Shown here one piece after another: positions 14,456-38,542 of a stretch of DNA of 64,000 bases; position 1 is the stretch's first letter, and every line of letters starts with the position of its first letter. The stretch spans positions 1 through 64,000 of the IMG/VR virus record IMGVR_UViG_3300025121_000038. One strand, given 5' to 3'. The translations under genes and the position numbers were made by a program. The notes under the pieces are model-generated. The model did no database searches and was not told the DNA's origin. It saw only the letters and a program-made list of their open reading frames with translations. This DNA is from a virus.

Positions 14456-14478
14456 TGGTGACGGACCCAGGACTTGAA
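14456..14478 (-). repeat. Displaced tRNA 3' end (TTCAAGTCCTGGGTCCGTCACCA), direct repeat of 15155..15174
   Basis: 19/20 identity with the 3' end of the tRNA at 15155; this copy carries CCA. Confidence 0.9.
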
Positions 14479-14507
14479 TTTTTCTTTTTATATTTGGTAC
14501 CTTTATC

Positions 14508-15173
14508 ATGATAAAATTATTTACAGAAGAAGAGTATAAGGCCGTTAAGTCTCGTCACACTTTACCCTTACAATGTATGAATTGTGGAACCATTTTTTAT
14601 AAAACTCGTATAGACATACATCTGGCAGAACTAGCTAAAAGAAATCAAAAATATGAATTTTGCAATAGATCTTGCAATAATAAGAAAAGATGTACCGTTT
14701 GTTGTAAACAATGTTTAAAAATATTTGAAAAAACTACGGGTGAAATGAAAAAGGGTTCCAATCATTTTTGTACTAAATCCTGTGCAGCAAAATACAACAA
14801 TGCTCATAAAACAAAGGGTACAAGAAGATCTAAACTTGAACAATGGTTAGAAATAAAATTACTTGAACTTTATCCAGACCTTGAGTTTCACTTTAACAAG
14901 ACAGACGCTATTAATGCTGAACTTGATATTTATATTCCAAGTCTTAAACTGGCTTTTGAATTAAACGGTATCTTTCATTATGAACCAATCTATGGTCAAG
15001 ATAAATTAGATAAAATTCAATCTAATGACCACAGAAAATTTCAAGCATGTATAGAACACAATATATCACTTTGTATTATAGATACAACATCACTCCTTCA
15101 TTTTAAAGAAAATAATGCGATAATATTTTTAAATATATTAACATCAATCCTTAATGACGGGCCCAGGACTTGA
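14508..15173 (+). CDS. Free-standing Zn-finger plus Vsr/DUF559-like endonuclease inserted at a tRNA T-loop
   Basis: CxxC clusters then ELDIYIPSLKLAFELNGIFHY; C-terminal half nearly identical to 32997..33710. Confidence 0.8.
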   Translation: MIKLFTEEEYKAVKSRHTLPLQCMNCGTIFYKTRIDIHLAELAKRNQKYEFCNRSCNNKKRCTVCCKQCLKIFEKTTGEMKKGSNHFCTKSCAAKYNNAHKTKGTRRSKLEQWLEIKLLELYPDLEFHFNKTDAINAELDIYIPSLKLAFELNGIFHYEPIYGQDKLDKIQSNDHRKFQACIEHNISLCIIDTTSLLHFKENNAIIFLNILTSILNDGPRT

Positions 15174-15233
15174 ACCTGGAAGCTCGTAAGCCACCCTGTT
15201 AGGGGTTGAGTTTACCAATTTCTCCAGCCCGCC
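15155..15233 (-). tRNA. tRNA-Leu-like with an aberrant 6-nt anticodon loop (CTAACA), no encoded CCA
   Basis: Cloverleaf GGCGGGC.../GCCCGTC-A, long variable arm, TTCAAGT T-loop. Confidence 0.65.
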
Positions 15234-15567
15234 GTATTTTAAAACATTTTTGGGACATATTCAGTGCGAACATGATTTCATATTTCGATATATACTTAGA
15301 TCAACCTTGGACAGTACAAAGGGTAAGGTCAACTTTATAGGACATAACCTCTTGTGCAGTTACCTTAGTCTCAGGGTAAAGTTTCCCTTCTCGGACATTT
15401 CGTTCTACAACTTCATCAATTTTTGCTTGCATTTGAGATTCTGAAAGACTTTCAAGATGAGCCTTTCTATAAATCTCATCTTTAATGGCTAGGGCTAACA
15501 GCTTAAAATTGAACATAATACCCTCAAGATTGTTGTTACTATACAAACGAAAAAGTCTAGATAATAT

Positions 15568-16827
15568 TCAGACGGAAAATTTAGTAGGAGCGAAACAGGA
15601 CAACATCTCTCGAAGGCTGTATTGTGTAGTGGGTCCGATAGCGATTGATTTGTTCTTATTATAGAACTCCATAAAGCTACTTACCACTTTGTTGAATTTG
15701 AATGCCTGAACATAGTTGGAGATTGTTTGTCTAAGATCTGTTAAGTCTAGTTCAACGAATCCTTCCTTAGAAGTCCATTCGTCAAATCTCTTAAAAAATC
15801 TTCGAATACCAACAATGTTGTTGTCGTTCCAGTCACCTCCATCAAAATAGTGGCCAAGGAACATAAGATAAAATCTAAGTTCGTCTGGATCATAGTCATC
15901 TGGGTTAACTACATTACCTTTGGATTTAGACATCTTCTCACCTTTGTAGGTGATCATACCTTGATGAATAAGTCTCTTGAAAGGCTCCTCTTCTTTTGCA
16001 ATGCCAAGGTCATACAGAAACATGTTTATAAACCTGGCGTAAATGAGATGCATACAAGCATGCTCATTACCACCTACATACAGGTCTACTTGCTGATATG
16101 CACCCTCAGATAGAAACTCTGTATCGGATCCTGTCAAGTATCTGAGATAATAGAAAGAACTGTCTACAAACGTGTCTAATGTATCCTCTTCACCTTCAAG
16201 AGGTATAGGGCACCCCCACTTACGTTGGCGTGAGACACACCAGTCATTAAGGTTCTCAAGCCAGTGACGCTGTTGCTTCTTGGTCTTTTCTGGGTAATCA
16301 ATCCAATCTAGATTTTTGATCAAACGGTCTTTGTAATCTGTGATCCTGAAGAACCATTGATTAAGCTCTCTACTCTCTATAATAGTAGAACAGCGCTCGC
16401 ATCGATCGTCTTTGACCTGTTCATTAGCAATAACAGTATTACACGATGGACAGAAATTAACTGGAGAGAATTTCTTGTAAGCTAGACCTTTCTCATGAAG
16501 TTTCAAGAACAGCCATTGAGTCCACTTATAATAAGACGGGTCTGAAGTTACAACTCTCTCTTCATATTGGGTATTCAGTCTAGTCATCTGTCTACGAAAA
16601 TTGTCTATATTCTCGTAAGTGACTTCTCTTGGGTCTCTGTTATGTTTAATCGCATAGTTCTCGGCCGGGAGGCCAAAAGCGTCATACCCAAAAGGTTGGA
16701 ATACTTCTACACCACGATATCTCTGCCATCGACAGTAACTATCCATAATGGCATAGTTATAGCAATGTCCTACATGGAGTCCGTCTCCTGACGGATAAGG
16801 AAACATTACCAGTACATACATAGTCAT
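15568..16827 (-). CDS. leuS: Minimal leucyl-tRNA synthetase (no CP1 editing domain, no C-terminal domain)
   Basis: MFPYPSG.GLHVGH, GYDAFGLPAENYA, DWCVSRQR.WG.PIP, DTLDTFVDSS, GG.EHA..HL.YARF, KMSKSKGN. Confidence 0.92.
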   Translation of the reverse strand: MTMYVLVMFPYPSGDGLHVGHCYNYAIMDSYCRWQRYRGVEVFQPFGYDAFGLPAENYAIKHNRDPREVTYENIDNFRRQMTRLNTQYEERVVTSDPSYYKWTQWLFLKLHEKGLAYKKFSPVNFCPSCNTVIANEQVKDDRCERCSTIIESRELNQWFFRITDYKDRLIKNLDWIDYPEKTKKQQRHWLENLNDWCVSRQRKWGCPIPLEGEEDTLDTFVDSSFYYLRYLTGSDTEFLSEGAYQQVDLYVGGNEHACMHLIYARFINMFLYDLGIAKEEEPFKRLIHQGMITYKGEKMSKSKGNVVNPDDYDPDELRFYLMFLGHYFDGGDWNDNNIVGIRRFFKRFDEWTSKEGFVELDLTDLRQTISNYVQAFKFNKVVSSFMEFYNKNKSIAIGPTTQYSLREMLSCFAPTKFSV

Positions 16828-18929: not shown

Positions 18930-19454
18930 TCAGGCTAGAAAAATCTGAGCTATCTTGCGAAAATCTGAAAATGACATATGAACATCTTTGATGTCTGGTC
19001 CAGTCTTCTGTAATAGAGTAATTCTGTCGTCTTTTATCAATAAATCTAACGTGTTTGTAAGTTTAGTCTTATGACCTTTCTTCAATAAAGTAGCCACAGA
19101 GTCTAACTCTTGTTCTAATTTTGTTTTCTCTCCAATCAAAGATTCAGATAAAGCTAATGTTTTCATAAGATCCGAGAGTTCGAAATCTTCTATCTCTTCT
19201 GGTAAAAGAACTTTTAATTTGTCATTTATGGGTGTAGATGGAAATGCTACTTTAACAGGTGCTGTAAGATCGCCCTGAGTATATTTAAGTCGTTTACAAT
19301 TGTGGCGCTTTATAGTTTTAGAGTCCCACTCTACCGTTACACCATATGTATCAATACCTATCACCACACCTACAGCCCCCAGAGGGATACCGTATCTTCT
19401 CACAGAATCATTTAAAAGAACAAAATCACCAATCTTGAATTTGTGTATAGGCAT
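18930..19454 (-). CDS. Hypothetical protein, paralog of 7792..8310
   Basis: Shared motifs; GGAG RBS. Confidence 0.65.
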   Translation of the reverse strand: MPIHKFKIGDFVLLNDSVRRYGIPLGAVGVVIGIDTYGVTVEWDSKTIKRHNCKRLKYTQGDLTAPVKVAFPSTPINDKLKVLLPEEIEDFELSDLMKTLALSESLIGEKTKLEQELDSVATLLKKGHKTKLTNTLDLLIKDDRITLLQKTGPDIKDVHMSFSDFRKIAQIFLA

Positions 19455-19471
19455 CTAAAGACTCCGAAGTG

Positions 19472-19699
19472 TTAATTGCGATCGGGAACTAACTCATGAA
19501 CTATACCACGCCACCCACATGCACATACAGCTCTGTTGTTGTCTACTGCTGTCTGTAGATCTGTAAATATGACACCTTTACAAGTAGTTTCCACATCTTG
19601 AGACCCACATGTTGGACAACACCTATGTATATTGTGATATTGGGTATAAACAGACTCTCTAACAGTCGGCTCTGGTATTGAAGATATTAGTATAATCAT
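19472..19699 (-). CDS. Small Zn-ribbon protein whose ATG abuts a tRNA CCA
   Basis: CPTCGS...CACG; sequence reads CCA-ATG. Confidence 0.55.
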   Translation of the reverse strand: MIILISSIPEPTVRESVYTQYHNIHRCCPTCGSQDVETTCKGVIFTDLQTAVDNNRAVCACGWRGIVHELVPDRN

Positions 19700-19773
19700 T
19701 GGAGCGGAATAAGGAAATTGAATCCTTAACTACGGCTTGGGAAGACGTCGTGTTACCCTTACACTAATCCCGC
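19700..19773 (-). tRNA. tRNA-Gly(CCC)
   Basis: GCGGGAT/ATTCCGC-T-CCA, TTCCCAA loop. Confidence 0.85.
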
Positions 19774-19829
19774 ATATACTAGCATACTGAACAATATGAA
19801 GGTAAGCAAAATTTGAGATTTAGTCTAAA

Positions 19830-20090
19830 TTAATTTGACGGACCACATTCTAGTTCGTAGTCTATAATGGCTTGTTGTATTCTGGTGAGATTAACGAAAG
19901 AAATTCTACCCATTTGTTCAGAGGATAAAAAAGCAAAAGCTGTGTTAGCAAAACTAGGGGAGATATGTGTTACACACGTAAAATCTAAAATAATACTTTG
20001 GGATCCAGACAGGAACTTTTCTCTAAAGGTCTTACCGCCGTCTCTGCCCGACAGTCTAGATTTAAACTCAGAGGCAATGTCTATAAGCAA
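19830..20090 (-). CDS. STAS-like (DUF4325-type) protein
   Basis: L..R..G...R ... IILDF..V..ISPSFA..AF. Confidence 0.65.
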   Translation of the reverse strand: MLIDIASEFKSRLSGRDGGKTFREKFLSGSQSIILDFTCVTHISPSFANTAFAFLSSEQMGRISFVNLTRIQQAIIDYELECGPSN

Positions 20091-20373
20091 TTGTACACTC
20101 CACTTGTTGAGGGGTTAGAGAGCCTATACCTTTCCATCTTGCGGAATTGTCTTCAATTTCTATTAAACCGGAGTCTCTATACGAAGATAAAGTGTCGTAT
20201 AGTAGGTCTCCTAAAGTGTTGTTGGTCCAAAAGATATGTTTATTATCTCGAAACTCTTGAAATTTATCTTCCGAAGAACTAACACCTTGGAAAATACCTA
20301 GAGTAACTCCTAAATAATAAGCAGCTACATCAAGATCTGTCCAATCCGTAAGATATTCTTTAAGTCTTTTCAT
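20068..20373 (-). CDS. Hypothetical protein
   Basis: 101-aa ORF with ATGA overlap. Confidence 0.55.
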   Translation of the reverse strand: MKRLKEYLTDWTDLDVAAYYLGVTLGIFQGVSSSEDKFQEFRDNKHIFWTNNTLGDLLYDTLSSYRDSGLIEIEDNSARWKGIGSLTPQQVECTIAYRHCL

Positions 20374-25175: not shown

Positions 25176-25196
25176 TTGTATTGCCTCTTTATGTTT

Positions 25197-25235
25197 TGGC
25201 GGTCCCAGAGAGAATCGAACTCTCGTTTTTTCACG
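25197..25235 (-). pseudogene. 3' half of a split tRNA-Asp-type gene
   Basis: CGTGA-AAAAAC-GAGAG-TTCGATT-CTCTC-TGGGACC-G-CCA. Confidence 0.85.
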
Positions 25236-25303: not shown

Positions 25304-26155
25304 ATGCAAAAACAATATATTAAGAGTAGGCGTAAAGATCAAAAAAGAGAGATGCTAACCTACAAAGGTGGATCATGTCAATTATGTAATTACGCGATAT
25401 GTGCTAGAGCAATGGATTTTCATCACAAAGACCCTACTCAAAAAGACTTCGGAATATGTGGTATGAATAAATCTTGGGAAGAAATTAAGACAGAATTAGA
25501 CAAATGTATTTTAGTCTGTAAAAACTGTCACGGAGAAATACACGATGGCCTTCACGACCAATTTAAAATACTCAATGTAAAAGTGCGCTCAAACTATGCT
25601 AATAGAATATATTATTATCGAAAACAATTCAAACACAATTTAGTCCAATACGCGGGTGGGTATTGTGCTATTTGTACTTACAAAAAGAGTTACAGATGTT
25701 TATCTTTTCACCATTTGAACAAATCAACAAAAACATTTGAAATAAATGAAGCTACTCAGAAAACTTTGGAAGAGATAGCAGTAGAACTTGATAAATGTAT
25801 TTTATTATGTCTAAACTGTCACTCTGAGGTACATGACGAAATTTCTGACATAAGCGATGTTAAACCAATAAAAAATCTTGAATATCTCGATATCATAAAA
25901 TCTCTCATTCAAAAAGATGAAAAACCATTAATAATAGAAAAATATTATTGTTTAGATTGTAATGTGGAAAAGAAAACATCCGCCGCAAGATGTGTTCCTT
26001 GCAGTCAAAAATACCAAGAGAAAGTGAAATGGCCAGAAATAGAAGAATTGATAGAAATGTTAAAAACAAGTAATAAAGTGTTATTGGCTAAACAACTCGG
26101 TGTTTCAGAAGCTGCTATACGGAAAAGGTTGTCAAAATATATGTTCAATACATGA
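25304..26155 (+). CDS. Double-HNH endonuclease with C-terminal HTH, inserted in a tRNA anticodon loop
   Basis: Two GGxCxxCxY...FHH...ELDKC.L.C.NCH.E.H units; KWP...AKQLGVSEAAIRKRL. Confidence 0.85.
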   Translation: MQKQYIKSRRKDQKREMLTYKGGSCQLCNYAICARAMDFHHKDPTQKDFGICGMNKSWEEIKTELDKCILVCKNCHGEIHDGLHDQFKILNVKVRSNYANRIYYYRKQFKHNLVQYAGGYCAICTYKKSYRCLSFHHLNKSTKTFEINEATQKTLEEIAVELDKCILLCLNCHSEVHDEISDISDVKPIKNLEYLDIIKSLIQKDEKPLIIEKYYCLDCNVEKKTSAARCVPCSQKYQEKVKWPEIEELIEMLKTSNKVLLAKQLGVSEAAIRKRLSKYMFNT

Positions 26156-26181
26156 CGTACTAACCACTGTACGATGGAACC
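26151..26181 (-). pseudogene. 5' half of a split tRNA-Asp-type gene
   Basis: GGTTCCA-TC-GTAC-AGTGGTTA-GTAC-G-TCATG; pairs with the 3' half at 25197. Confidence 0.85.
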
Positions 26182-26185
26182 CTTT

Positions 26186-27689: not shown

Positions 27690-27763
27690 TGGAGCGGGTA
27701 GAGAGAATCGAACTCTCAATTGTAACTTGGAAGGATACCGTGTTACCTTTACACTACACCCGC
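27690..27763 (-). tRNA. tRNA-Gly(TCC)
   Basis: CTTCCAA loop, GCGGGTG/TACCCGC-T-CCA. Confidence 0.88.
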
Positions 27764-27847: not shown

Positions 27848-28588
27848 ATGCACATAACAAAAAATTTTTCTGAAGAAGGATTTGTTAAAAATATTAAATG
27901 TTCTGACTCGGACTTCATAATTGCTGTAAATAAAACCATAAGTATCGCAGAATTACTAAGATACTTAAACATACCTCAACATAGGGGCAGGCATTATGAG
28001 TCTGTTAAATTTAAAATAAAACAATTAAAATTAGACACATCTCATTGGGGTCCTTATGTTAAACGTAATGGTCATAAAAGAAAAGATTTAAAAGACATTC
28101 TTACAATAGGCACTTCCATATGTCATTTAAAAAGATTATTAGATGAAAATGTCTTAAAAAATGAATGTTATGAGTGTGGCCTAATACCCTATTGGAAAGA
28201 AAAACCTCTTAAATTACAAATTGACCATATCAATGGTATAAATACAGACAATAGACTTGAAAATCTAAGACTATTGTGTCCCAATTGTCACTCTCAAACA
28301 GACACGTTTTGTGGTAGAAATGTAACAAAACGACATAAAAAGCCAACTTGCATAGATTGCAATACACAAATAAGCAGGAAATCTTTAAGGTGTACTATTT
28401 GTCAAGCAAAAATTAATAAAGTTACTACAAAAATTACATGGCCAGAAACAAGAGATCTTATAAAGATGATAGAAAATAGTTCTGTATTGGCCACTTCAAG
28501 AAATTTAAAGTGTTCTGATGCAGCCGTATATAAACACTTAGAATCAAGAGGGTTTGTAGTAAAAAACAAAAAAGTTTATAAAGACTGA
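27848..28588 (+). CDS. HNH endonuclease with C-terminal HTH
   Basis: CYECG...LQIDHINGINTDNRLENLRLLCPNCHSQT; stop codon lies in a tRNA-Gly 5' half. Confidence 0.88.
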   Translation: MHITKNFSEEGFVKNIKCSDSDFIIAVNKTISIAELLRYLNIPQHRGRHYESVKFKIKQLKLDTSHWGPYVKRNGHKRKDLKDILTIGTSICHLKRLLDENVLKNECYECGLIPYWKEKPLKLQIDHINGINTDNRLENLRLLCPNCHSQTDTFCGRNVTKRHKKPTCIDCNTQISRKSLRCTICQAKINKVTTKITWPETRDLIKMIENSSVLATSRNLKCSDAAVYKHLESRGFVVKNKKVYKD

Positions 28589-28613
28589 CACACTACCATT
28601 GTGTTATACCCGC
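28581..28613 (-). pseudogene. Orphan 5' half of tRNA-Gly, cut at the anticodon loop
   Basis: GCGGGTA-TA-ACAC-AATGGTA-GTGT-G-TCAGT-CTT. Confidence 0.8.
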
Positions 28614-30232: not shown

Positions 30233-30301
30233 TGGATGGGGAGGAAGGATTTGAACCTTCAACCTCTTGGTGCTGAGTCTGATGTAGTGCCACTTCTGCT
30301 A
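30233..30301 (-). pseudogene. 5'-truncated tRNA remnant downstream of an HNH gene
   Basis: D-arm, T-arm GAAGG-TTCAAAT-CCTTC and CCA present; 5' acceptor strand replaced by the ORF end; anticodon stem unpaired. Confidence 0.7.
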
Positions 30302-30976
30302 TAATTTAAACAGATGTTTTCTTATAGCCGCCTCAGAAACCCCTAATCTTTTGGCAACCGTAGTTCTATTTGTTAATTTTATTTCTTCCAATAAATCTAT
30401 ATCAGATGGCCAAATTATTTTCTTTTTCTTAGGGAGACTGTTAAAACACTTTTTGCATGTTGAAGCATTCAACGTTATTGTCTTTTGACAATGTGGACAC
30501 TTATTACCAACAAAATCTGTCTTTTTCTTATTACGACCAGCAAAAGTAGGAGTTTGACTATGACAATTTGGACACAACAATCTTAAATTTTCTAACCTAT
30601 TGTCGGTATTAACCCCATTGATATGGTCAAGATGTAAAACCAAGGGTTCACCTTGCCAGATTGAACTTACCCCGCATTTCTCACACTTCTCTTGTATTAT
30701 ATTATCTCGTATCAATTTTGTTTTCAAATCACGAGGTCTAAAGTTGGAATTGTCCCGTAATGGTTCTAATTTTAGACTTTTTCTATCATTAGGTTTCTTC
30801 AAGTCTGAAAGAGACAGGTTTTCTTCAGCCATTCTATTTTTTAATGTCTGACAATTTCCACCGGCTTGTTGCAGACCATAATGTGCTAGAATTTCAGTTA
30901 AAGTCTCACAACTTAAAACAATGTTTTTAAAATTCTCAGAAGAATCTTTCCAAATTGGACTTCGTCGTTTATTCAT
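30299..30976 (-). CDS. HNH endonuclease with C-terminal HTH
   Basis: LHLDHINGVNTDNRLENLRLLCPNCHSQT; AKRLGVSEAAIRKHL; ATG directly follows a tRNA CCA. Confidence 0.88.
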   Translation of the reverse strand: MNKRRSPIWKDSSENFKNIVLSCETLTEILAHYGLQQAGGNCQTLKNRMAEENLSLSDLKKPNDRKSLKLEPLRDNSNFRPRDLKTKLIRDNIIQEKCEKCGVSSIWQGEPLVLHLDHINGVNTDNRLENLRLLCPNCHSQTPTFAGRNKKKTDFVGNKCPHCQKTITLNASTCKKCFNSLPKKKKIIWPSDIDLLEEIKLTNRTTVAKRLGVSEAAIRKHLFKL

Positions 30977-31056
30977 TGGCAGACGTGGTAGGATTCGAAC
31001 CTACATAAATGACCTGGGTTCAAAGCCCAGCGCAACGCCAATTTTGCTACACGTCT
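30977..31056 (-). tRNA. tRNA-Gln(TTG)
   Basis: CTGGG-CTTTGAA-CCCAG, GCCA. Confidence 0.88.
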
Positions 31057-31254
31057 AAAACCTTTTAAAATTACTTCAAACCTGAAATTGTGCTACTCCC
31101 CAATTATGTTGAGGTCACCTAATTTTCATGTTTGATACACCTCAAGGTCTCAAACACTAGATGGTTTCGTTATCCATCTCCATATTTGCCTTCATGTTCT
31201 CCAAAACACATCTCACATATCATTTTTTACCTTTAATTTCTTCCAAATCTTTAG

Positions 31255-31722: not shown

Positions 31723-31725
31723 ATA

Positions 31726-32235: not shown

Positions 32236-32425
32236 ATTGCGGACACCGTGAAAACGATGTCTGAACTCCTTGTACACATGGTACATGAGCTAAAGCTTAT
32301 TATCAATCACTAATAGAAGCCATCTGTCAAGGTTTTCACAATTGAATAGATTTAGATCCTATTAGCTGAGCTAGTTGCATCCCTTATGTCCCTTAATGGG
32401 ACTCTGGTTAGCAAATAATAAGCTA

Positions 32426-32512
32426 TGGTAGCTGTGGTCGGATTCGAACCGACACGTCCATTACAGACACGGATTTTGAGTCCGCTTCGTCATGCCAATT
32501 GCGTACACAGCC
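32426..32512 (-). tRNA. tRNA-Leu(CAA), long variable arm
   Basis: GCGGA-CTCAAAA-TCCGT, long arm, ACCA. Confidence 0.88.
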
Positions 32513-32710
32513 ACAAAATTAATTGTCGAGTTTACCTTTACATCAAATCCGGTGCCACCGTAGGTTTCCCGGTTTGGTACTGGAACCACAAGAGGATTGG
32601 TTACCCCTACTTTTTCGGCTTAGTGCCTATGCCTCTAGTTGGGCTATGTGGTTTAAAATGAGGTGCAAGTTGTTAACATTTTATTCTGTCCATACACCTG
32701 TGTTTTAATA

Positions 32711-32790
32711 TGGTGGAGCACCTGGGATTTGAACCCAGCTAAATATCCGAATTGCAAGTCCGGCGACCACCCCTAGCAGTCTCGTGCCCC
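32711..32790 (-). tRNA. tRNA-Ala(TGC)
   Basis: G3:U70, CCGGA-CTTGCAA-TTCGG, CCA. Confidence 0.88.
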
Positions 32791-32812
32791 ATAAATATGT
32801 TTCTACCAAAAC

Positions 32813-32889
32813 TGGTGGCCGTGAGAAGATTTGAACTTCCACTGAACAGGCTCTCAACCTGCTTCCTCTGCCAGTTGGGATACACGGCC
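32813..32889 (-). tRNA. tRNA-Leu(GAG), short variable loop
   Basis: GCAGG-TTGAGAG-CCTGT, 5-nt variable loop TCAGT, ACCA. Confidence 0.88.
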
Positions 32890-32942
32890 AATTTGAGTGT
32901 GATGTTCACACTCGTTTCTATATTCAATTGTCAAAGATCTAA

Positions 32943-32965
32943 TGGGGTGCTATGAGAGAGTTGAA
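32943..32965 (-). repeat. Displaced tRNA-His 3' end with CCA; 21-bp direct repeat of 33650..33670
   Basis: gggtgctatgagagagttgaa is identical at both sites. Confidence 0.92.
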
Positions 32966-32996
32966 AACTAATTTTCTCTTTATAACTTACCCATTT

Positions 32997-33710
32997 ATGA
33001 TAAAAAAATTTACATATGACCAATATAACCAAGCTAAAAGTCTAGATAATCTATTACTAGAATGTCTATTTTGTAAACAAGATTTTCTATGTACAAAACG
33101 AAATATTAAGCATGCATTACTCAACTCAACAAAAGACAAACGAAAATTCTGTACATTAAAATGTAGCAAAGAATATTTAAAGTCACTAAACTTCATTATT
33201 TGTTCTTATTGTAACAATAAATCACATAGACAAAAAGCTCTTATAAATGTTGGCAATAATTTTTGTACTCAATCATGTGCGGCAAAATACAATAATGCAC
33301 ATAAAACAAAAGGTACTAGAAGATCCAAACTTGAACAATGGTTAGAAATAAAATTACTTGAACTTTATCCAGACTTAGAATTTCACTTCAATAAAACAGA
33401 TGCTATAAATGCTGAGCTTGACATATACATACCAAGTCTTAAACTGGCTTTTGAGCTAAATGGTATCTTTCATTATGAACCAATCTATGGTCAAGATAAA
33501 TTAGATAAAATTCAATCTAATGATCACAGAAAATTTCAAGCATGTATAGAACATGACATATCCCTTTGTATTATTGATACATCAAATCAACTTTATTTCA
33601 AAGAACAAACATCTAAAAAATATTTAGACATTATAACTAATATAATTGAGGGTGCTATGAGAGAGTTGAACTCTCGTATTCGGATCCACAAACCGACGTT
33701 CTACCGTTGA
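32997..33710 (+). CDS. Free-standing Zn-finger plus Vsr/DUF559-like endonuclease inserted at the tRNA-His T-loop
   Basis: Start MIKKFT parallels MIKLFT of 14508; near-identical nuclease half; C-terminus reads antisense through tRNA-His. Confidence 0.8.
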   Translation: MIKKFTYDQYNQAKSLDNLLLECLFCKQDFLCTKRNIKHALLNSTKDKRKFCTLKCSKEYLKSLNFIICSYCNNKSHRQKALINVGNNFCTQSCAAKYNNAHKTKGTRRSKLEQWLEIKLLELYPDLEFHFNKTDAINAELDIYIPSLKLAFELNGIFHYEPIYGQDKLDKIQSNDHRKFQACIEHDISLCIIDTSNQLYFKEQTSKKYLDIITNIIEGAMRELNSRIRIHKPTFYR

Positions 33711-33722
33711 ACTAATAACACC
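33651..33722 (-). tRNA. tRNA-His(GTG)
   Basis: G-1:C73, TTGTGGA loop; CCA not encoded. Confidence 0.9.
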
Positions 33723-33946
33723 ATAATTTAGAACTGATATTAACAATTACCTTGAGTTGTTAATACCTATAGCAGAGTCTAGAACTTAAGATCTGCCTCG
33801 TAGTGTTCACACCATACCATTTTTATTGGTAGAGAGGTGTCGTCCACATCTCTTTTCAGAAATGCACTCCCCTAAGTATAGGATGCAGAGTGTCAAGGGT
33901 TTCGCATCCTTAGTGTTGAAGTCAGTAGTTCCGTACCGTATCAACT

Positions 33947-34022
33947 TGGTGCCCCTCCCCGAATTCGAATCGGGACTTTACAGATTTTAAGTCTGTTGCC
34001 TCTGCCGTTGGGCTAGAAGGGC
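33947..34022 (-). tRNA. tRNA-Leu(TAA), short variable loop
   Basis: ACAGA-CTTAAAA-TCTGT, 5-nt variable loop AAAGT, ACCA. Confidence 0.88.
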
Positions 34023-34099
34023 ATATTGTCTTGCTTACTCATTATACAACATACAGGCTTATAAGTGCGAATGGTCTATAAACTTATTCAGCCTATTTT

Positions 34100-34134
34100 T
34101 GGTGGTCCTGGAGAGTATCGATCTCTCGCTACTG
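34100..34134 (-). pseudogene. Displaced 3' third of a tRNA-Glu-type gene
   Basis: CAG-TAGC-GAGAG-ATCGATA-CTCTC-CAGGACC-A-CCA; the ORF stop lies within it. Confidence 0.8.
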
Positions 34135-34818
34135 ATAATGTATCCATTTATATATCTTCTTAGACTTTATAAGAGTCACAGTACTTCTAGACACTCCGTA
34201 TTCAAAAGCTAATTCTTTATGTAATTTATCAGTATGATATATCTCTAATGCTTGTTCTTTCGTTAATTTTAAAGGTTTGCCATCTAGACCATGAGTCCAA
34301 ACATCCCCTTTTTCTGACATAATTCTATTCGTATTATACAATCCAAAACAAGACTTTGAACAAAAAGGTAGTACATTATATTTGACATCTCTAGAAAAAA
34401 TCTTTTGACAATATGTACATTTAAACTCATGTTTAGGTTTAAAATTATCATATAAAATGTGATAATTTTTTGTTCCAAATTTATTCTTTACATAATCGAA
34501 AGCGAACTGTAAATCTTTTTCACGCAAAACTATTACTGTAAAACCATGATGTTCTGCTACTTTAGTTTTTGCTTCTACCTTCGAAGGAAGTTCATACCCT
34601 TTTATTTCTATTATGGTTTTATAGTCATCAAGTAAAAAATCAGGGACATACTTCAACCCATTATTTTCTAATATGCCAGAAAATCTTGTAAAGTTAATAT
34701 TATGGTCTAAAGCATATACTACCCAACATAATTCATATGTTGACCCACAATAAATACCTTTATAATAACCATGTTTTGATCTTCCAGATCCTTTTCTATA
34801 CCCACCAATTTGTTTCAT
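34129..34818 (-). CDS. PD-(D/E)XK endonuclease with Zn-ribbon and HTH
   Basis: STYE...YVPDF...IIEIKG; CTYC..FCSKSC; LAFEYGVSRSTV; ATG abuts a tRNA CCA. Confidence 0.82.
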   Translation of the reverse strand: MKQIGGYRKGSGRSKHGYYKGIYCGSTYELCWVVYALDHNINFTRFSGILENNGLKYVPDFLLDDYKTIIEIKGYELPSKVEAKTKVAEHHGFTVIVLREKDLQFAFDYVKNKFGTKNYHILYDNFKPKHEFKCTYCQKIFSRDVKYNVLPFCSKSCFGLYNTNRIMSEKGDVWTHGLDGKPLKLTKEQALEIYHTDKLHKELAFEYGVSRSTVTLIKSKKIYKWIHYQ

Positions 34819-34892
34819 TGGTGCTCTCGGAGGGTGTCGATCCCTCGTTACCAGATTGAAAGCCTAGCGTTCTACTGTTGAACTACGAGAGA
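34819..34892 (-). tRNA. tRNA-Glu(TTC)
   Basis: CTAGG-CTTTCAA-TCTGG, ATCGACA T-loop, ACCA; 1:72 mismatch. Confidence 0.82.
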
Positions 34893-34907
34893 AAACTTTC
34901 AAAAAAC

Positions 34908-35012
34908 TAGTGAGTACGGGAGGAATCGAACCTCATTGCACCCTTGCCATCTGTAGGAATCGAACCTACAATTACAGACGTCTCTGTAGTCACCTGACTT
35001 TCATACTCACTA
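34908..35012 (-). ncRNA. tRNA-mimic RNA with two T-arms
   Basis: TAGTGAGTATG/CGTACTCACTA stem; TGTAGG-TTCGATT-CCTACA and GAGG-TTCGATT-CCTC. Confidence 0.65.
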
Positions 35013-35055
35013 AAAATGGTGGCGTTTAATGGATGCTACACGCCAAAGTCTAATC

Positions 35056-35179
35056 ATGAACATTAAGGATTCGAACCTCAGTCTCTGAAGAGCGATAAAG
35101 GCCTCCGATGGCTTCGGGATTCGAACCCTCTTTATCGACTTATAACATCAGTGCTCTCCCGTTGAGCTATTTTGTTCAT
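35056..35179 (-). ncRNA. tRNA-like RNA with a second T-arm domain nested in the anticodon arm
   Basis: D-arm GCTC-AACGGGA-GAGC, two GGTTCGAATCC loops, internal CGATAAAG/CTTTATCG stem. Confidence 0.65.
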
Positions 35180-35189
35180 TTTAAAACGC

Positions 35190-35930
35190 CCCTGCATTGT
35201 TTCAACATAGTTTCTCTCGGGTCAAGAGCTATGCTATGTGTAGATAAAACAATGCTGCATCCAACCCTGCTCTCTGTCAGTCCGGTTTCTCGTGGGTCAC
35301 AAGCTATGCCGGGTTTTACAACAATGAGCTAATACCTACTTAATAAACTCTACTGAGTGGGTTTCAACAAATGACCCTTTATGTATTTTAATACATAAAG
35401 TAGTAAAAGTTGGCCTTGTTAGGGCTCATTTACTCTACACAAATGTTTCTACCTCGTCTAACCTATTATACTACAGTTACATAACTGTAGTATACTCTAA
35501 AATATATAACATATAATAACAAAATATAAGATAAATTTGGAGGAAGTTGGTCTTATGAGGACGCGTCCTCCGTTTTTTATTAGTTGCTAACTCTTCTAAA
35601 TCTCTACAATGGGTTAGCATTCATTGTAGCGGAAGCATTACTTTCAACAAGCCCTCAGTCACTGTTACACCTTTTACAGTGTCCATCAACGCGTCCTAAA
35701 ACGCTCAGACGTACTTTATCAGTACCGTTTTAAGGGCTCTCCAGTTTTTCTTCCGTCGCTCACAAGTGCTTGTCTTTTCCCCGCGTTACTTTGCATTTCT
35801 CGCGATTATTTAAGTCAAAACACTAATTTGCTTTTTTGCCCTTTGGAAGTGGATAATGGCTCGACCCTTTCAGGTATTAGCAACTGGGTCCATTATGCCG
35901 CTTTTGTTCCGCTCTTTACTTCCATCGTTC
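35190..35930 (-). ncRNA. Long ORF-poor structured region, candidate ncRNA(s)
   Basis: About 740 nt with no minus-strand ORF of 60 aa or more, several perfect hairpins, promoter motif at 35941. Confidence 0.45.
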
Positions 35931-35999
35931 ATATAATACTAACGAACTACTATCAAAGTTAATCAGAGAGATTCTAAATTATTTTAAAATTATCCAAAA

Positions 36000-36290
36000 T
36001 CATTCAGACAAATTCTTGAACCCAGGTAAAAATCGAACCCCCACCGTCGCAACAATAGAAGGTCTCCATACCATGCCACATTTTTGACATGCATGAGTAT
36101 GATGTGCTTTTGTTTCAAACTCACCCGTATCTATATGTCTTTCGCCACATGAAGGACACCATAGCAACATCGGTATAGGCCTGGACAATACAAAGACTGC
36201 CTCTGTAAGGTCTTTTAAAGTAAACAGTACAGGGGCAGTCTTAATAGTTTCTACGCCCTCAATTATCTTGCGCAGATAGTCCTGGTTCAT
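36000..36290 (-). CDS. Zn-binding hypothetical protein coupled to tuf
   Basis: [16 protein letters not shown]; ATGA overlap. Confidence 0.6.
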
Positions 36291-37480
36291 ACATTACCAA
36301 TATTAGTGATCACCCCAGCCCCAATGGTACGACTACCTTCTCTAACCGCGAAGCGAGAGTTCACCTCAAAGCCAGCTGGTTTATTCAGTTCAACCTTGAT
36401 AGTAGTACGGTCACCTGGGTTGACACACTCTAACCCTTCTGGAAGAGTGATTACCCCAGTAACATCTGTAGTACCGAAATAGAATTGAGGTCTATACCCA
36501 CTCTTGAATGGTTTCTCACGACCCCCTTCTTTTGCGGTCAAGGTATAAAACTCAGCCTCGAATTTTGCATTGCTTCTAATAGACCCAGGAGCGGCCAAAA
36601 CTTGACCTCTCCGTATCTCGTCTCTCTTAACCCCACGGAGCAACATACCGATGTTCATACCAGCAAGACCTTCCGGTACATCTTTACGGAACATCTGGAC
36701 TCCTGTAACGACTACCTTTCTGGGTTTGCCACCCTCGTCTTCGGTAAGACCTACTATCTCAACCTCGTCTCCGATCTTGACCTTACCACGGTCAATACGG
36801 CCTGTAGCTACCGTACCACGCCCAGATATTGTAACAACGTCTTCTACCGACATTCGGAACGGAGAGTCCATATCTCTAACAGGCTCTGGAATAGTATTGT
36901 CCAAAGCATCCATCAATTCTGGGATGGATCCGATCCAAGGGCTAGTCCAGTCTCCTGCATTAGCCGCTTCAAGAGCCTTAAGAGCGGATCCTCTCACGAA
37001 CTTGACATCAGTATACCCATAGCTCTCGAGGATTTCGTTTGCTTCCATTTCTACGAGAGACAAGAGCTCTTCGTCTTCACAACGATCAACTTTGTTCACG
37101 AAAACAACGATATGCTTTACCCCTACTTGAGATGCAAGCAATACGTGTTCCTTGGTTTGGGGCTCAGGTCCTTGAGATCCATCGACCAAAAGTATAGCAC
37201 CGTCCATCTGAGCAGCACCCGTGATCATGTTCTTGATGTAGTCAGCATGTCCTGGACAGTCAATATGTGCATAATGTCTGTTCTTTGTTACATACTCTAC
37301 GTGAGCGGTATTGATTGTAATACCACGAGCTTTTTCTTCAGGAGCTTTATCTATTTGATCATAGTTAAGGGCTTGCCCACCATGTTCTTTAGCCTGTATC
37401 TTTGTGATAGCTGCCGTAAGAGTGGTTTTACCATGGTCGATGTGACCTATACTTCCGACTGTTAACATTACTCTACCCAT
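36287..37480 (-). CDS. tuf: Translation elongation factor Tu
   Basis: [53 protein letters not shown]; GGAG RBS before the ATG at 37480. Confidence 0.97.
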
Positions 37481-37581
37481 CTTTTTCTCCAAATTTAATT
37501 TACCACAGAACAACTAACGGATAATAACAATATTCCTTTTATGAAGTACTTCATCGAACCTAAAATTCATGGAGACTTCAT

Positions 37582-38499
37582 TTGCCAAATAACATTTCTA
37601 CACGCACTAGGATTTGTCCAAATTGTCAAAACTCATATCTCTTAAATGTGACTATTGACGGAGAACGAATAGCCCTCCACAAACGTAAATATTGCTTAGA
37701 TTGTTCTCCTTTTATCAAAGGTAGCAACAAAATAAGTAACCGAAAGACCTTAGAAAAACACAACAAGTCTGAATCTTTTTGCAAAGAATGTAACTCAATA
37801 AAACCTATAGATCAATTCTATTTTAGGCACAGTGGACTACCCTTGTCTATCTGTAAAAAATGTCATCACGAAGAATCTAAACAACAAACTAAATCTTATA
37901 AGGAGCAGGCAGTCGCTTATAAAGGCGGATCCTGCGAGCTTTGTAATTATAGCAAATGTTTAGATGCAATGGACTTTCATCACAAAGACCCTACTCAAAA
38001 AGATTTCACTTTTAGTAGAAGATTTCCATGTTTCAAAACAGCTAAACCAGAACTCGATAAATGTATGCTCTTATGTGCCAACTGTCACCGCGAAGAACAT
38101 CAGCGTATGGCAGACATAGATTTTAAAAATTCTGACCACGGGCAGCTTGACCCATTAGGCCATAGATGTCGTAGATGCAACCTACATAAAACTATAAATT
38201 CTTTCCCTATAGATAAAGGAATACCAAAACCTTGGTGTAAGTCATGTACTCGTTTATATGGTAGACAAGGTAGAGCAAAAATCAAACAAGAAATTATCTC
38301 CTATAAAGGAGGGGTTTGTGAAATATGCTCCTATAACAAAAACATTGCTGCATTAGATTTACATCACAAAGACCCAACTCAAAAATCTTTTGGCATTGCC
38401 GAAATGAGAGATAAATATCTCTCTGAAATCAAAGATGAGGTAGATAAGTGCATTTTAACCTGTGTAAACTGCCATAGAGAACAACACGTTAAACCTTAA
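37582..38499 (+). CDS. Double-HNH endonuclease inserted into the 5' end of tuf
   Basis: Two YKGG.C..C.Y...HHKDPTQK.F...DKC.L.C.NCHRE.H units; same family as 25304..26155. Confidence 0.85.
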   Translation: MPNNISTRTRICPNCQNSYLLNVTIDGERIALHKRKYCLDCSPFIKGSNKISNRKTLEKHNKSESFCKECNSIKPIDQFYFRHSGLPLSICKKCHHEESKQQTKSYKEQAVAYKGGSCELCNYSKCLDAMDFHHKDPTQKDFTFSRRFPCFKTAKPELDKCMLLCANCHREEHQRMADIDFKNSDHGQLDPLGHRCRRCNLHKTINSFPIDKGIPKPWCKSCTRLYGRQGRAKIKQEIISYKGGVCEICSYNKNIAALDLHHKDPTQKSFGIAEMRDKYLSEIKDEVDKCILTCVNCHREQHVKP

Positions 38500-38542
38500 T
38501 CTCCACGTGTCCTACCGTCCCTGTGTTAACATGAGTCTTCAT
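38489..38542 (-). pseudogene. tuf: Displaced original N-terminus of EF-Tu (MKTHVNTGTVGHVE...)
   Basis: AAGGA RBS then ATG AAG ACT CAT GTT AAC ACA GGG ACG GTA GGA CAC GTG GA, matching the EF-Tu HVNxGTxGHVD motif. Confidence 0.85.

Follow-up and report, generated by a model that had tools for sequence, protein, structure and literature searches.

Selfish genes for DNA-cutting enzymes usually ride in self-splicing introns. The known systems that come closest to the cassettes described here are SegB of phage T4 and the mobile ORFs (mORFs) of fungal mitochondria that are accompanied by duplicated gene ends; an mORF with a duplicated gene end at atp6 is said to have been described in the original Allomyces study. 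In the excerpts of two papers, SegB of phages T4 and T6 is a free-standing GIY-YIG homing endonuclease of the tRNA gene cluster that recognizes GGTTCRANTCC, a conserved motif of the T arm, and cleaves tRNA genes at their 3′ end; segB and the neighbouring tRNA genes are preferentially inherited, and SegB is linked to many tRNA isotypes and drives changes in tRNA gene copy number (PMC2330249, PMC13096335). Fungal mORFs with a duplicated gene end are described, in part of a further paper, in Glomus (atp6, atp9, cox2 and nad3), Rhizopus (atp9) and Mortierella (cox2): the endonuclease ORF brings a foreign copy of the end of the interrupted gene, and the native end is left as a remnant that is closer to relatives than the inserted copy (PMC3630166). 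Two more distant points of reference, likewise taken from excerpts, are I-Bth0305I, whose gene lies in a group I intron of recA (PMC3239194), and the HDV-like theta ribozymes that follow phage tRNAs (PMC10879173); the available portion of the latter text contains no mention of 'endonuclease', 'homing' or 'duplication'.

The window, a stretch of 64,000 nucleotides, is a fragment of the genome of an uncultured jumbo phage from groundwater. Its minus strand carries 33 tRNA genes, tuf and a MetRS-like gene, and seven nuclease cassettes (C1 to C7, Table 1) interrupt tRNA genes or tuf. This confirms the observation of an earlier note on this DNA and supports its interpretation of the cassettes: all seven ORFs that it reported are present at the coordinates given, its HNH, Vsr-like and PD-(D/E)XK types are borne out (four ORFs are HNH, two combine a zinc finger with a Vsr-like part, and the seventh is PD-(D/E)XK-like), and each ORF overlaps a fragment of a tRNA gene or tuf or lies at most 7 nt away from one. 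The claim that every ORF end overlaps its target fails for C4, whose stop codon lies 7 nt from the decayed part of the remnant and 33 nt from its clear part. Each of the seven ORFs has a fold known from homing endonucleases, namely HNH (C2, C3, C4 and C7), Vsr-like (C1 and C5, at weak E-values) or PD-(D/E)XK (C6, on weak matches); the GIY-YIG family is absent from their Pfam and PHROG matches.

The ORFs stand apart from introns and inteins, and five run antisense to their target; together with one shadow ORF inside tuf, these five are the only plus-strand ORFs of at least 150 aa between 13 and 40 kb. As the earlier note had stated from inspection, integrases, transposases and intron cores are missing: scans of the cassette ORFs and of 10 ORFs next to them turned up neither an integrase nor a transposase domain, and no group I intron or other ribozyme family was matched by Rfam within 13000-41000 at E-values up to 10, in a search able to detect Intron_gpI (L080 1225-1440, 75 bits). 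An eighth nuclease-like ORF occupies 23133-24047. The window also holds orphan tRNA fragments without a nuclease, such as a tRNA-Leu 5′ fragment (31342-31373) and T arms at 22551, 34953 and 35064, and such fragments are also common in related arrays.

Table 1. Coordinates of the cassette ORFs, the gene remnants beside them and the genes that they complete or replace
Feature	Coordinates	Strand	Basis or remark
C1 remnant: displaced copy of last 20 nt of tRNA (T loop to discriminator base)	14459..14478	-	19/20 identical to 15155-15174
C1 zinc-finger + Vsr-like nuclease ORF, antisense to array	14508..15173	+	
tRNA-like gene completed by C1 cassette	15155..15233	-	ARAGORN 'tRNA-???'
C2: 3′ fragment of split tRNA-Asp(GUC) (T arm, acceptor 3′ strand, CCA)	25196..25227	-	
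C2 double-HNH nuclease ORF, antisense, no replacement tRNA	25304..26155	+	phrog_2255 at 6.8e-40
C2: 5′ fragment of split tRNA-Asp (acceptor 5′ strand, D arm)	26157..26182	-	
tRNA-Gly(UCC), present form	27690..27763	-	ARAGORN, Rfam, X7 comparison
C3 HNH nuclease ORF, antisense	27848..28588	+	Pfam HNH_3 1.1e-6; phrog_10822 7e-39
C3 remnant: native 5′ 33 nt of tRNA-Gly(UCC), through first anticodon base	28581..28613	-	
C4 native 3′ remnant of tRNA-Gln(UUG) (variable loop, T arm, acceptor, CCA)	30233..30265	-	
C4 HNH nuclease ORF, same strand as array	30299..30976	-	Pfam HNH; phrog_10822 3e-38
Cassette-borne whole tRNA-Gln(UUG)	30977..31056	-	ARAGORN; Rfam 60.3 bits
C4 native 5′ remnant of tRNA-Gln(UUG) (acceptor 5′ strand, D-arm start)	31086..31102	-	
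C5 remnant: displaced tRNA-His 3′ end (T loop to end)	32945..32965	-	21/21 identical to 33650-33670
C5 zinc-finger + Vsr-like nuclease ORF, antisense	32997..33710	+	reads 61 nt into tRNA-His
tRNA-His(GUG), intact	33650..33721	-	ARAGORN; Rfam 62.2 bits
C6 remnant: T arm, acceptor 3′ strand and CCA of another tRNA-Glu	34100..34128	-	D3
C6 PD-(D/E)XK-like nuclease ORF, same strand as array	34129..34818	-	ATG directly after CCA
tRNA-Glu(UUC) upstream of C6	34819..34892	-	ARAGORN; Rfam 52.6 bits
tuf (EF-Tu), complete	36287..37480	-	Pfam GTP_EFTU 2.5e-59, plus domains 2 and 3
C7 double-HNH nuclease ORF, antisense	37582..38499	+	phrog_2255 at 9.9e-60
C7 remnant: native tuf start codon and 13 further codons	38500..38541	-	

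Six of the seven cassettes bring a spare for the part that they break, and to these the earlier idea of a 'target-repairing' element applies. The spares come in three grades: a whole gene, a 5′ or 3′ part, or a tuf 5′ end. A whole new tRNA is found for Gln and Glu and new 5′ two-thirds for Gly, while the tRNA-His and unassignable tRNA cassettes carry a copy of tRNA nt 54-73 and the tuf cassette a new 5′ end; the cassette in tRNA-Asp brings no replacement. Six intact replacement copies had been claimed; the spares are there, but the tRNA-like gene at C1 and the tRNA-Glu at C6 are doubtful as working tRNAs, the latter on account of a U1.C72 mismatch. The gene at C1 had been called 'Leu-like'; a tRNA-like gene with a long variable arm and an acceptor stem that pairs (by eye) is present, but the Leu label does not hold, as the anticodon is unassignable and the Rfam tRNA search gave no match.

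The HNH cassettes illustrate the range of these arrangements. C2 and C7 are paralogs with two HNH modules each (D5, D7), and C3 and C4 match Pfam HNH and HNH_3 as well as phrog_10822 'HNH endonuclease' (E about 1e-38). At C2, the acceptor strands of the two tRNA-Asp fragments pair with each other. At C3, the fragment noted earlier is present and its owner, here corrected, is tRNA-Gly(UCC): the present gene consists of the cassette-borne 5′ portion (27718-27763) and the native T arm and 3′ end (27690-27717), the last 8 nt of the ORF overlap the native anticodon stem, and the acceptor strand of the displaced remnant pairs perfectly with the 3′ strand at 27690-27717. At C4, the ATG of the ORF directly follows the CCA of the new tRNA-Gln, which diverges strongly from the native allele, and the native 3′ remnant may continue as a decayed stretch to about 30292. 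In a relative of the C3/C4 family (L124), the nuclease gene is flanked by a 5′ remnant of roughly 30 nt on one side and an intact tRNA-Arg(cct) on the other.

The same logic extends to a protein-coding gene. C7 lies between a 5′ remnant of tuf, which breaks off after GHV in the P-loop region, and the complete tuf, whose first ~13 codons deviate from the clade consensus. An N-terminus of the form ..H-x-N-x-GTIGH-x-DHGKTT occurs in 25 of 26 relative loci, and thereby in all 25 that have a P loop; it is kept in the remnant of the window but not in its complete tuf. The remaining locus (L022) has a truncated HNH gene fused to a tuf without P loop.

C1 and C5 are paralogs, with 90% identity over 300 nt (D1) and 64% identity in alignment A1. 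Three CxxC-type zinc-finger units at the N-terminus precede a C-terminal nuclease domain, and E140, D142, E153, H159 and D176 are invariant in the family. The best Foldseek matches of the AlphaFold model (pLDDT 86) are Vsr, PvuRts1I and the catalytic domain of I-Bth0305I (1vsr, 1cw0 and 3r3p among them), with probabilities of 0.98-1.0 but E-values of only 5e-3 to 8e-2 (7e-3 to 8e-2 for these three structures). C1 breaks its target after TTGAA of the T loop, and the last 19 nt of its ORF overlap the tRNA 3′ end. The PD-(D/E)XK-like ORF of C6 has the invariant residues E29, P59-D60, E71 and K73 (E..PD..ExK); its fold matches are weak and mostly to PD-(D/E)XK nucleases, and it has no match in Pfam, PHROG or NCBIfam. 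Its remnant displays an unusual ATCGAYA T loop that it has in common with the neighbouring tRNA-Glu, and the acceptor strand of the remnant shows no pairing with that gene's 5′ strand. The adjacent tRNA-Glu(UUC), self-consistent apart from U1.C72, is probably cassette-borne.

Uninterrupted alleles, which the earlier note had proposed to look for in related phages and whose absence would by its own criterion have refuted it, were found at C2, C3 and C4, and these sites are thus polymorphic between relatives for the presence of a cassette. The empty alleles are Logan contigs of one run (X7, from another groundwater study) at low depth (6.2, 4.1 and 2.9), and they represent a relative of the window phage with roughly 90% identity. 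One contig of 754 nt is syntenic with three segments of the window and skips 30266-31085, that is, the C4 ORF and its tRNA-Gln (820 bp), with 27 nt in between. A second contig joins 25227 to 26157 via a 19-nt anticodon arm at the C2 site, and a third joins 27717 to 28581 with 13 nt in between at the C3 site. When the joints are combined with the window flanks, ARAGORN predicts tRNA-Gln(ttg), tRNA-Asp(gtc) and tRNA-Gly(tcc) in all three cases, with canonical cloverleaves. For tRNA-Gly and tRNA-Gln, the X7 relative aligns with the native remnants but not with the new parts; the cassettes have replaced tRNA genes. Flanking synteny is seen for the C4 joint only, and the Asp and Gly joints could be orthologous tRNAs elsewhere in the related phage. 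No empty alleles of C1, C5, C6 or C7 were seen in the contigs of relatives; the alignment of a syntenic X7 contig ends at exactly 32965, the edge of the C5 remnant.

A wider view of the nuclease families reveals a consistent preference for particular positions. At least 135 relatives of the Vsr-like family occur in uncultured phages (IMG/VR), and 80 of these loci were fetched for inspection. Of 83 nuclease matches, 50 have an antisense tRNA 3′ end at -10 to +160 nt relative to the end of the match, with many isotypes represented. Exact repeats of the last 17-21 nt of the tRNA are found upstream of the ORF in C5 and in L044, L061, L091, L074 and L071. Every one of these repeats ends at T[CT]GAA in the T loop and corresponds to the 3′ end of whichever tRNA the cassette has entered (among them His, Ile, Met, Pro and Lys). 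Of 72 distinct loci, 42 have T[CT]GAA at 16-90 nt upstream of the start, compared with 186 of 720 control windows. The family occupies tRNA nt 53/54 to 73; L015, a locus of the tuf clade, has an anatomy like that of the Vsr-like cassettes. Several remnants at related loci have drifted far from the neighbouring tRNA. Eleven relatives of C1 and C5 share a conserved structured element that begins at the first base past tRNA nt 73; it is absent from C1 and C5 themselves, and no Rfam ribozyme family was matched in 20 related loci. In the PD-(D/E)XK family, tRNA-Glu(ttc) is directly adjacent in 11 of 13 loci, and L110 has the same layout as C6, with a T-arm remnant immediately past the stop codon. 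That each nuclease family returns to the same tRNA site, nt 53/54-73 for the Vsr-like enzymes and tRNA-Glu(UUC) for the PD-(D/E)XK enzymes, supports targeted insertion.

Most probably, these units are free-standing, intron-less homing-endonuclease cassettes that sit inside the tRNA gene or tuf that each interrupts. In a co-infected cell, the nuclease would recognize a conserved stretch of the allele without a cassette (from T loop to 3′ end, the D loop, the anticodon arm or the P-loop-coding DNA) and cut there. Recombination-dependent phage repair would then copy the cassette from the occupied genome, with the two flanking remnants serving as homology arms. The spare, be it a whole tRNA, part of a tRNA or a tuf 5′ end, would maintain the function of the gene, and where its sequence has diverged it would additionally remove the recognition site. 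Such immunity of the spare copies is inferred, as are cleavage of the empty alleles, the direction of transfer, ongoing homing and expansion of the array by the cassettes. It is important to point out that the presumed target of C5 is identical to the C5-completed tRNA along the whole tRNA, so that divergence would not explain an immunity to this enzyme.

The fragments could instead be debris of unequal recombination among similar tRNA genes, with the nuclease genes as bystanders in the gaps. The orphan fragments of the window and of related arrays speak for this and suggest that part of the debris has other causes or has lost its nuclease, but all seven nuclease ORFs lie at a fragment boundary, the junction falls at the same tRNA position per nuclease family in unrelated phages, and each of the three X7 joints differs from the window by exactly one cassette, which renders mere debris very improbable. 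In genomic islands, integrases use the T-loop position within tRNA genes. The C1 and C5 units have a layout reminiscent of attL and attR, with an intact tRNA at one end and, at the other, a direct repeat from T loop to 3′ end. That they are miniature integrative elements served in trans by a tyrosine or serine integrase, with the 20-nt repeats as att sites, is nevertheless improbable in the extreme: the repeat matches whichever tRNA is occupied and is therefore derived from the target rather than a fixed attP, the nuclease is the sole conserved cargo, and the scans for integrase domains in the cassettes and neighbouring ORFs were empty.

The cassettes could also be old, fixed insertions that are inert or domesticated and no longer home; possible domesticated roles are the exclusion of related phages and a SegB-like, break-induced amplification of tRNA genes. 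Runs X3, X5 and X6 (two studies) carry the cassettes as the window does, so that the cassettes may be fixed in this population, several remnants at related loci have drifted far, and SegB has such a secondary role in phage T6, according to an excerpt (PMC13096335). This reading, compatible with a homing origin of the cassettes, appears unlikely: none of the seven ORFs is closed, three of the cassettes are missing from the X7 relative, and the exact repeats at C5 and at five related loci point to recent events.

Two mechanisms familiar from tRNA genes do not fit the cassettes: a tRNA group I intron, as no Intron_gpI match was found in 13000-41000, and an integrase-mediated tRNA island, as the cassettes are single ORFs without an integrase domain and their repeats follow each host tRNA. 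Islands and prophages that carry an integrase and insert at tRNA genes restore the 3′ part of the tRNA and leave a direct repeat at the far end. C1 and C5 resemble them in both features, but the cassettes have no integrase, a target-derived repeat across isotypes and a length of about 0.7 kb with a single nuclease gene. C1 and C5 resemble I-Bth0305I, as far as the excerpt describes it (PMC3239194), in being multidomain, phage-borne proteins with a C-terminal nuclease domain, and their model gives Vsr-fold matches at weak E-values, but they are free-standing, have N-terminal zinc fingers and lie at tRNA 3′ ends; sequence searches gave no link to I-Bth0305I or the EDxHD family. The structured element right after tRNA nt 73 in the relatives of C1 and C5 is a candidate counterpart of the theta ribozymes (PMC10879173); the window's own cassettes do without it, and Rfam finds no ribozyme at the 20 related loci.

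SegB, as excerpted, has in common with the cassettes that a free-standing nuclease gene resides within a phage tRNA array. It has a GIY-YIG fold, which none of the seven ORFs has, and lies between tRNA genes, and the excerpts describe neither broken tRNA halves nor a replacement part (PMC2330249, PMC13096335); the cassettes, in contrast, lie inside their target, part of which they duplicate or replace, and one has entered tuf. The combination of an ORF, an inserted copy of a gene end and a retained native end relates C7 (tuf), C3 (tRNA-Gly) and C1 and C5 (nt 54-73) to the fungal mORFs, as does the fact that in tuf, tRNA-Gly and tRNA-Gln the native remnant is nearer to relatives than the spare. 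In the part of the source at hand, mORFs are organellar, have protein-coding targets, duplicate the C-terminal end and usually form an in-frame fusion (PMC3630166), whereas the cassettes reside in a phage, mostly target RNA genes and often have an antisense ORF, and their spare corresponds to the 5′ portion, the 3′ portion or the whole of a gene, with C2 lacking one. Most cassettes carry a spare for the part that they break, probably because they are unable to splice out, and cassettes of this kind represent an alternative to self-splicing introns.

Contigs of four public metagenome runs (X3, X5, X6 and X7) were aligned to window positions 19000-38999, and in X3, X5 and X6 the nuclease cassettes are present as in the window. 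X7, which comes from a separate study, holds a relative of the window at ~85-93% identity. A 754-nt X7 contig (depth 6.2) aligns to 31587-31341 and 31178-31086 and then jumps to 30265 with 27 other letters, thereby skipping the C4 ORF together with the adjacent tRNA-Gln. A pair of further joints, each on a single contig (depths 4.1 and 2.9) and seen without flanks, leads from 25227 to 26157 with 19 letters and from 27717 to 28581 with 13 letters. Set between the window flanks, the X7 letters yield a tRNA-Gln(ttg) of 77 nt, a tRNA-Asp(gtc) of 75 nt and a tRNA-Gly(tcc) of 74 nt in ARAGORN, all of which span the joints and possess full acceptor stems. The earlier note had interpreted the cassettes as intron-free insertions, and these three uninterrupted tRNAs, each from a single low-depth contig, support that interpretation.

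The same joints indicate what happened to the targets. Based on one low-depth contig, C4 is a ~0.8-kb insert with its own tRNA-Gln in the D loop of the resident tRNA-Gln. The joint across C2 (one low-depth contig, flanks not in view) implies that the anticodon arm of tRNA-Asp was replaced by the cassette, which brought no spare; in the window the acceptor strands of the split tRNA-Asp still pair and the anticodon arm is gone. The joint across C3, again one low-depth contig with its flanks out of view, assigns a new 5′ two-thirds (27718-27763) to the cassette, and it shows an arrangement in which this C3-borne part would now work with the native tRNA-Gly T arm and 3′ end; the D stem in the new part is swapped in a compensatory way. 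X7 cover is absent over the C5, C6 and C7 ORFs, a lack that is not counted as evidence, and one X7 contig, whose alignment breaks off precisely at 32965 and leaves 19 nt over, at most hints at an empty tRNA-His allele. Two other joints are treated as cross-mapping: 25223 to 27689 in X3, X5 and X6, which lies within an 18-nt T-arm repeat, and 31282 to 32470 in X3, where one side measures 22 nt. Likewise, a cluster of SNPs at 33299-33461 in X3, X5 and X6 is not taken as strain variation, as it fits contigs of the C1 paralog placed on C5. The X7 relative also skips 31179-31340, next to a 5′ fragment of tRNA-Leu that has no nuclease ORF nearby and may represent a tRNA replacement whose nuclease was lost.

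Features of the window and of related loci (Lnnn); C1-C7 are the nuclease cassettes of the tRNA/tuf array
Feature	Position	Strand	Target or setting
C1 ORF	14508-15173	+	unassignable tRNA
C1 nuclease half	14750-15049		
MetRS-type class I aminoacyl-tRNA synthetase, 419 aa, phage-encoded	15568-16827	-	within tRNA array
tRNA-like sequence	22540-22660	-	missed by ARAGORN
Eighth nuclease-like ORF	23133-24047	-	
tRNA-like sequence	24090-24200	-	missed by ARAGORN
C2 ORF	25304-26155	+	tRNA-Asp(GUC)
C3 ORF	27848-28588	+	tRNA-Gly(UCC)
C4 ORF	30299-30976	-	tRNA-Gln(UUG)
tRNA-Leu 5′ fragment	31342-31373	-	3 nt upstream of intact tRNA-Leu(CAG)
C5 ORF	32997-33710	+	tRNA-His
C5 nuclease half	33245-33544		
C6 ORF	34129-34818	-	tRNA-Glu(UUC)
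tRNA-like sequence	34910-35023	-	missed by ARAGORN
C7 ORF	37582-38499	+	tuf
tRNA with anticodon UUA (ochre-suppressor type)	62628-62702	-	remote from main array
Truncated HNH gene	L022:9882-10120		directly upstream of tuf
Group I intron (Rfam, 75 bits)	L080:1225-1440	-	locus with two Vsr-like nuclease copies
~55-nt element	~3650-3740 in most loci	tRNA strand	L028, L029, L037, L044, L045, L058, L061, L064, L071, L074, L091

C5 is flanked by a 21/21 direct repeat of the tRNA-His 3′ end and C1 by a 19/20 repeat of the 3′ end of the neighbouring tRNA; both repeats span the first T-loop base to the discriminator base, with the break after TTGAA. The last 8 nt of C3 overlap a 33-nt 5′ remnant of tRNA-Gly. 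The ATG of C4 and that of C6 stand immediately 3′ of the CCA of an intact tRNA, and 3′ of each ORF lies what is left of the 3′ end of a second tRNA, whose isotype matches that of the intact neighbour; a search upstream of 34892 revealed no C6 5′ remnant (expected acceptor strand GGTCCTG). At C7, 14 codons of the tuf 5′ end abut the stop codon on the side facing away from the complete tuf. The idea that the T-loop remnant acts as a -35 box of the nuclease gene is unsupported: a sigma-70 scan left both cassette 5′ ends without a promoter and counted no more sites there than in shuffled sequence.

All seven nuclease ORFs of the earlier note are present as described in the ORF listing of the window, and its view that intron cores, integrases and transposases are missing also held, with zero Rfam matches to intron or ribozyme families in the cassette region and neither integrase nor transposase domains in the cassettes and the ten neighbouring ORFs scanned. 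The plus-strand ORFs of at least 150 aa in 13-40 kb are the five nuclease ORFs, bar a shadow ORF inside tuf. C3 and C4 are HNH proteins (Pfam; phrog_10822 at ~1e-38), and C2 and C7 form a paralogous pair in which either protein contains two HNH modules (phrog_2255 at 7e-40 and 1e-59). C1 and C5 are likewise paralogs, whose C-terminal nuclease halves are 90% identical in DNA over 300 nt and whose zinc-finger N-termini have diverged, a pattern that suggests recent gene conversion or, alternatively, the swapping of DNA-binding modules between paralogs in different tRNAs. An alignment of their family (43 sequences) contains invariant cysteine pairs and invariant E140, D142, E153, H159 and D176, and the top matches of its AlphaFold model (pLDDT 86.2) are PvuRts1I, Vsr (1cw0, 1vsr) and the catalytic domain of I-Bth0305I, at probabilities of 0.98-1.0 yet in no case at E <=0.001. 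C6 has no family match in Pfam, PHROG or NCBIfam searches; its family alignment (11 sequences) shows the PD-(D/E)XK pattern of invariant E29, P59-D60, E71 and K73, and the fold matches of its model (pLDDT 82.5) are weak and mostly to PD-(D/E)XK nucleases. Sequence searches of C5 and C6 against PDB chains returned designed repeat proteins and noise only, and an NCBIfam search yielded nothing of use. The eighth nuclease-like ORF, missing from the earlier list, has a PD-(D/E)XK-like domain as well as a C2H2 zinc finger (phrog_15137 'endonuclease' at 1e-9; Pfam endonuclease I as a weak match), and no clear target remnant was found beside it.

The Vsr-like family of C1 and C5 comprises at least 135 confirmed IMG/VR relatives, 80 loci of which were fetched for analysis; in 50,697 GenBank phage records it has four partial matches only. 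For 50 of the 83 tblastn matches, the 3′ end of an antisense tRNA lies -10 to +160 nt from the match end, and Rfam adds adjacent tRNAs missed by ARAGORN at L038, L040 and L047. The isotypes concerned are Met, Pro, Ile, Trp, Glu, Leu, Arg, Lys, Gly, Gln, Ser, Thr, Asp, Cys and His. Exact repeats of the tRNA end occur upstream of the nuclease ORF in L044, L061 and L091 (20 nt each), L074 (18 nt) and L071 (17 nt), and all five end in T[CT]GAA. A repeat score of at least 15 is reached in 6/50 tRNA-adjacent rows vs 2/50 rows for controls (20 windows per row). Of 72 distinct loci, 42 have the motif that ends the T-loop remnant at a distance of 16-90 nt upstream of the start, vs 186 of 720 control windows, and with a following A the motif occurs in 26/72 vs 63/720; this count supersedes a comparison of upstream regions with a pool of 391 tRNA 3′ ends, which has little power (14/72 vs 9/216 controls at >=24 bits). 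Elsewhere, for example in L050, L053, L062 and L065, the remnants are unlike the neighbouring tRNA. One Vsr-like locus, L080, contains a group I intron.

Eleven relatives carry a further conserved element of ~55 nt on the tRNA strand, which begins at the first base past tRNA nt 73, in the gap that separates the tRNA from the nuclease stop. The opening 7 nt of the element co-vary with a 7-mer ~30 nt downstream: among 13 related loci with a gap of 49-67 nt from the tRNA to the nuclease stop, all seven positions pair in 8 trailers and at least six in 11, compared with 3.3% and 32.5% of shuffled trailers. The element looks like an HDV-type (theta-like) ribozyme that would free the tRNA. A gathering-score Rfam scan of 20 related loci matched no ribozyme family (117 tRNAs, one tmRNA and one group I intron were found), so that it is the pairing count that speaks for the element. 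C1 and C5 of the window do not have it.

The PD-(D/E)XK family of C6 is represented by 13 loci, some near-identical (L108 = L109; L116 = L117 = L118). A tRNA-Glu(ttc) directly adjoins the nuclease in 11 of the 13, in either orientation, and in L110 a T-arm remnant follows the stop codon immediately, in the same layout as C6. The diversity of these tRNA-Glu sequences suggests targeting of the isotype, as opposed to one travelling unit. L124, a relative of C3 and C4, is flanked by a 5′ remnant and an intact tRNA-Arg(cct).

In 25 of 26 relative loci tuf starts with the motif ..H-x-N-x-GTIGH-x-DHGKTT, and four begin MKTHVNVGTIGHVD. The tuf remnant in the window reads MKTHVNTGTVGHVE before the break, and the first 15 residues of the complete tuf differ from the remnant start. 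Since the remnant keeps the motif of the relatives and the complete gene does not, the remnant is the native start, and the start of the working gene is foreign or recoded. The one relative locus without the P-loop motif, L022, has a truncated HNH gene fused to a tuf that starts just past the P loop and misses the first ~20 codons. Judged by this gene arrangement, L022 adds to the window an independent case of an HNH/tuf breakpoint in the P-loop region, and P-loop-coding DNA thus emerges as a recurrent breakpoint beside HNH genes, in 2/27 tuf loci including the window.

The source record is 81 kb long, of which the window is the first 64 kb, and ~35% complete (CheckV); the public runs containing the window are groundwater metagenomes. 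ARAGORN finds 34 tRNA genes in the window, 33 of them on the minus strand at 15,155-39,905, and Rfam supports 27 of these 33 at gathering score, the six others being at 15155, 22245, 22332, 24686, 27407 and 32711. Three additional tRNA-like sequences were missed by ARAGORN. One of them shows a paired acceptor together with a T arm and CCA, and a terminator hairpin comes after it; another has an acceptor of 8 bp and a D region with a large insert, and the remaining one contains two T arms (Rfam tRNA-Sec, 26.7 bits). The tuf gene inside the array is complete (Pfam GTP_EFTU 2.5e-59, plus domains 2 and 3). Relatives of it, at 49-66% protein identity, occur on 26 other IMG/VR contigs (many measuring 190-620 kb), again within tRNA arrays, which places the cassettes in a clade of huge phages whose translation-gene islands are large; these arrays contain homologs of every nuclease type and many tRNA fragments. 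Near relatives are scarce: the GenBank phage collection offers only a 63-nt DNA match, the best tuf in IMG/VR stands at 66% identity, a metagenome scan with tuf returned 80 loci, all at <=65% identity, mostly ordinary tuf and none a near relative, and a scan with C7 detected no relative.

On sequence grounds, intron-less homing is the simplest reading of the cassettes. The remnants would serve as homology arms and the spare would keep the interrupted gene working; diverged spares (tRNA-Gln, the tRNA-Gly 5′ part and the tuf start) would also destroy the recognition site. Ordinary double-strand-break repair does not explain the exact 20-nt duplication of the Vsr-like family. The repeat is the end of whichever tRNA is occupied, so its source is the target rather than the element, which argues against an integrase-type att site. 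It might originate from two staggered nicks, 20 bp apart, and their fill-in, or from microhomology capture and subsequent short-patch conversion from the remnant. A more ambitious reading combines three proposals: that the supply of spare parts is a third strategy, and a general one, by which homing nucleases persist within essential genes, that the Vsr-like family moves by a transposition-like step (nicks 20 bp apart on opposite strands, at tRNA 53/54 and 73/74, whose fill-in would give a true target-site duplication of nt 54-73 and make an integrase unneeded), and that an HDV-like ribozyme recreates the tRNA 3′ end in many relatives. We consider it rather unlikely that this combination holds in its entirety.

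The usual view is that homing endonucleases gain access to essential, conserved genes only where an intron or intein takes them out of the product, and otherwise stay intergenic. The phage array presents another route, in which the cassette breaks the gene and supplies a substitute for the broken piece. In tRNA genes the substitute amounts to 20 nt, two-thirds or all of the tRNA, and in tuf to the first codons. Three unrelated nuclease folds within 24 kb suggest strong, repeated selection. Spare-part cassettes offer a specific mechanism by which the large tRNA arrays of huge phages could turn over fast and become mosaic, and complement the amplification of tRNA genes driven by SegB. Two sizeable uncultured nuclease families with predictable targets are thereby defined (tRNA nt 54-73 and tRNA-Glu(UUC)), a third candidate would be aimed at the P-loop-coding DNA of EF-Tu, and the predicted nucleases may serve as sequence-specific enzymes.

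Several known systems come close. SegB recognises a T-arm motif, cuts at tRNA 3′ ends and spreads together with neighbouring tRNA genes (PMC2330249); it drives tRNA-gene amplification in T6 and is tRNA-associated across phages (PMC13096335). HNH genes have been noted beside bacterial tRNA arrays (PMC8421152), fungal mitochondrial mORFs carry along a duplicated C-terminal gene end (PMC3630166), and I-Bth0305I defines the Vsr-like homing family (PMC3239194). The cassettes resemble SegB-type tRNA-targeting homing genes and, in their duplicated gene ends, the mORFs. The literature searches turned up no account of nuclease cassettes that bring spare parts into tRNA genes or tuf of phages, and the supplementary neighbourhood data on SegB (PMC13096335) might show similar remnants. 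Compared with these precedents, four features are new: the spare-part design occurs in a phage, for RNA genes and for tuf; three nuclease folds employ it in close proximity; the duplication of nt 54-73 is stereotyped across a large family from uncultured phages; and one nuclease family is linked to tRNA-Glu(UUC).
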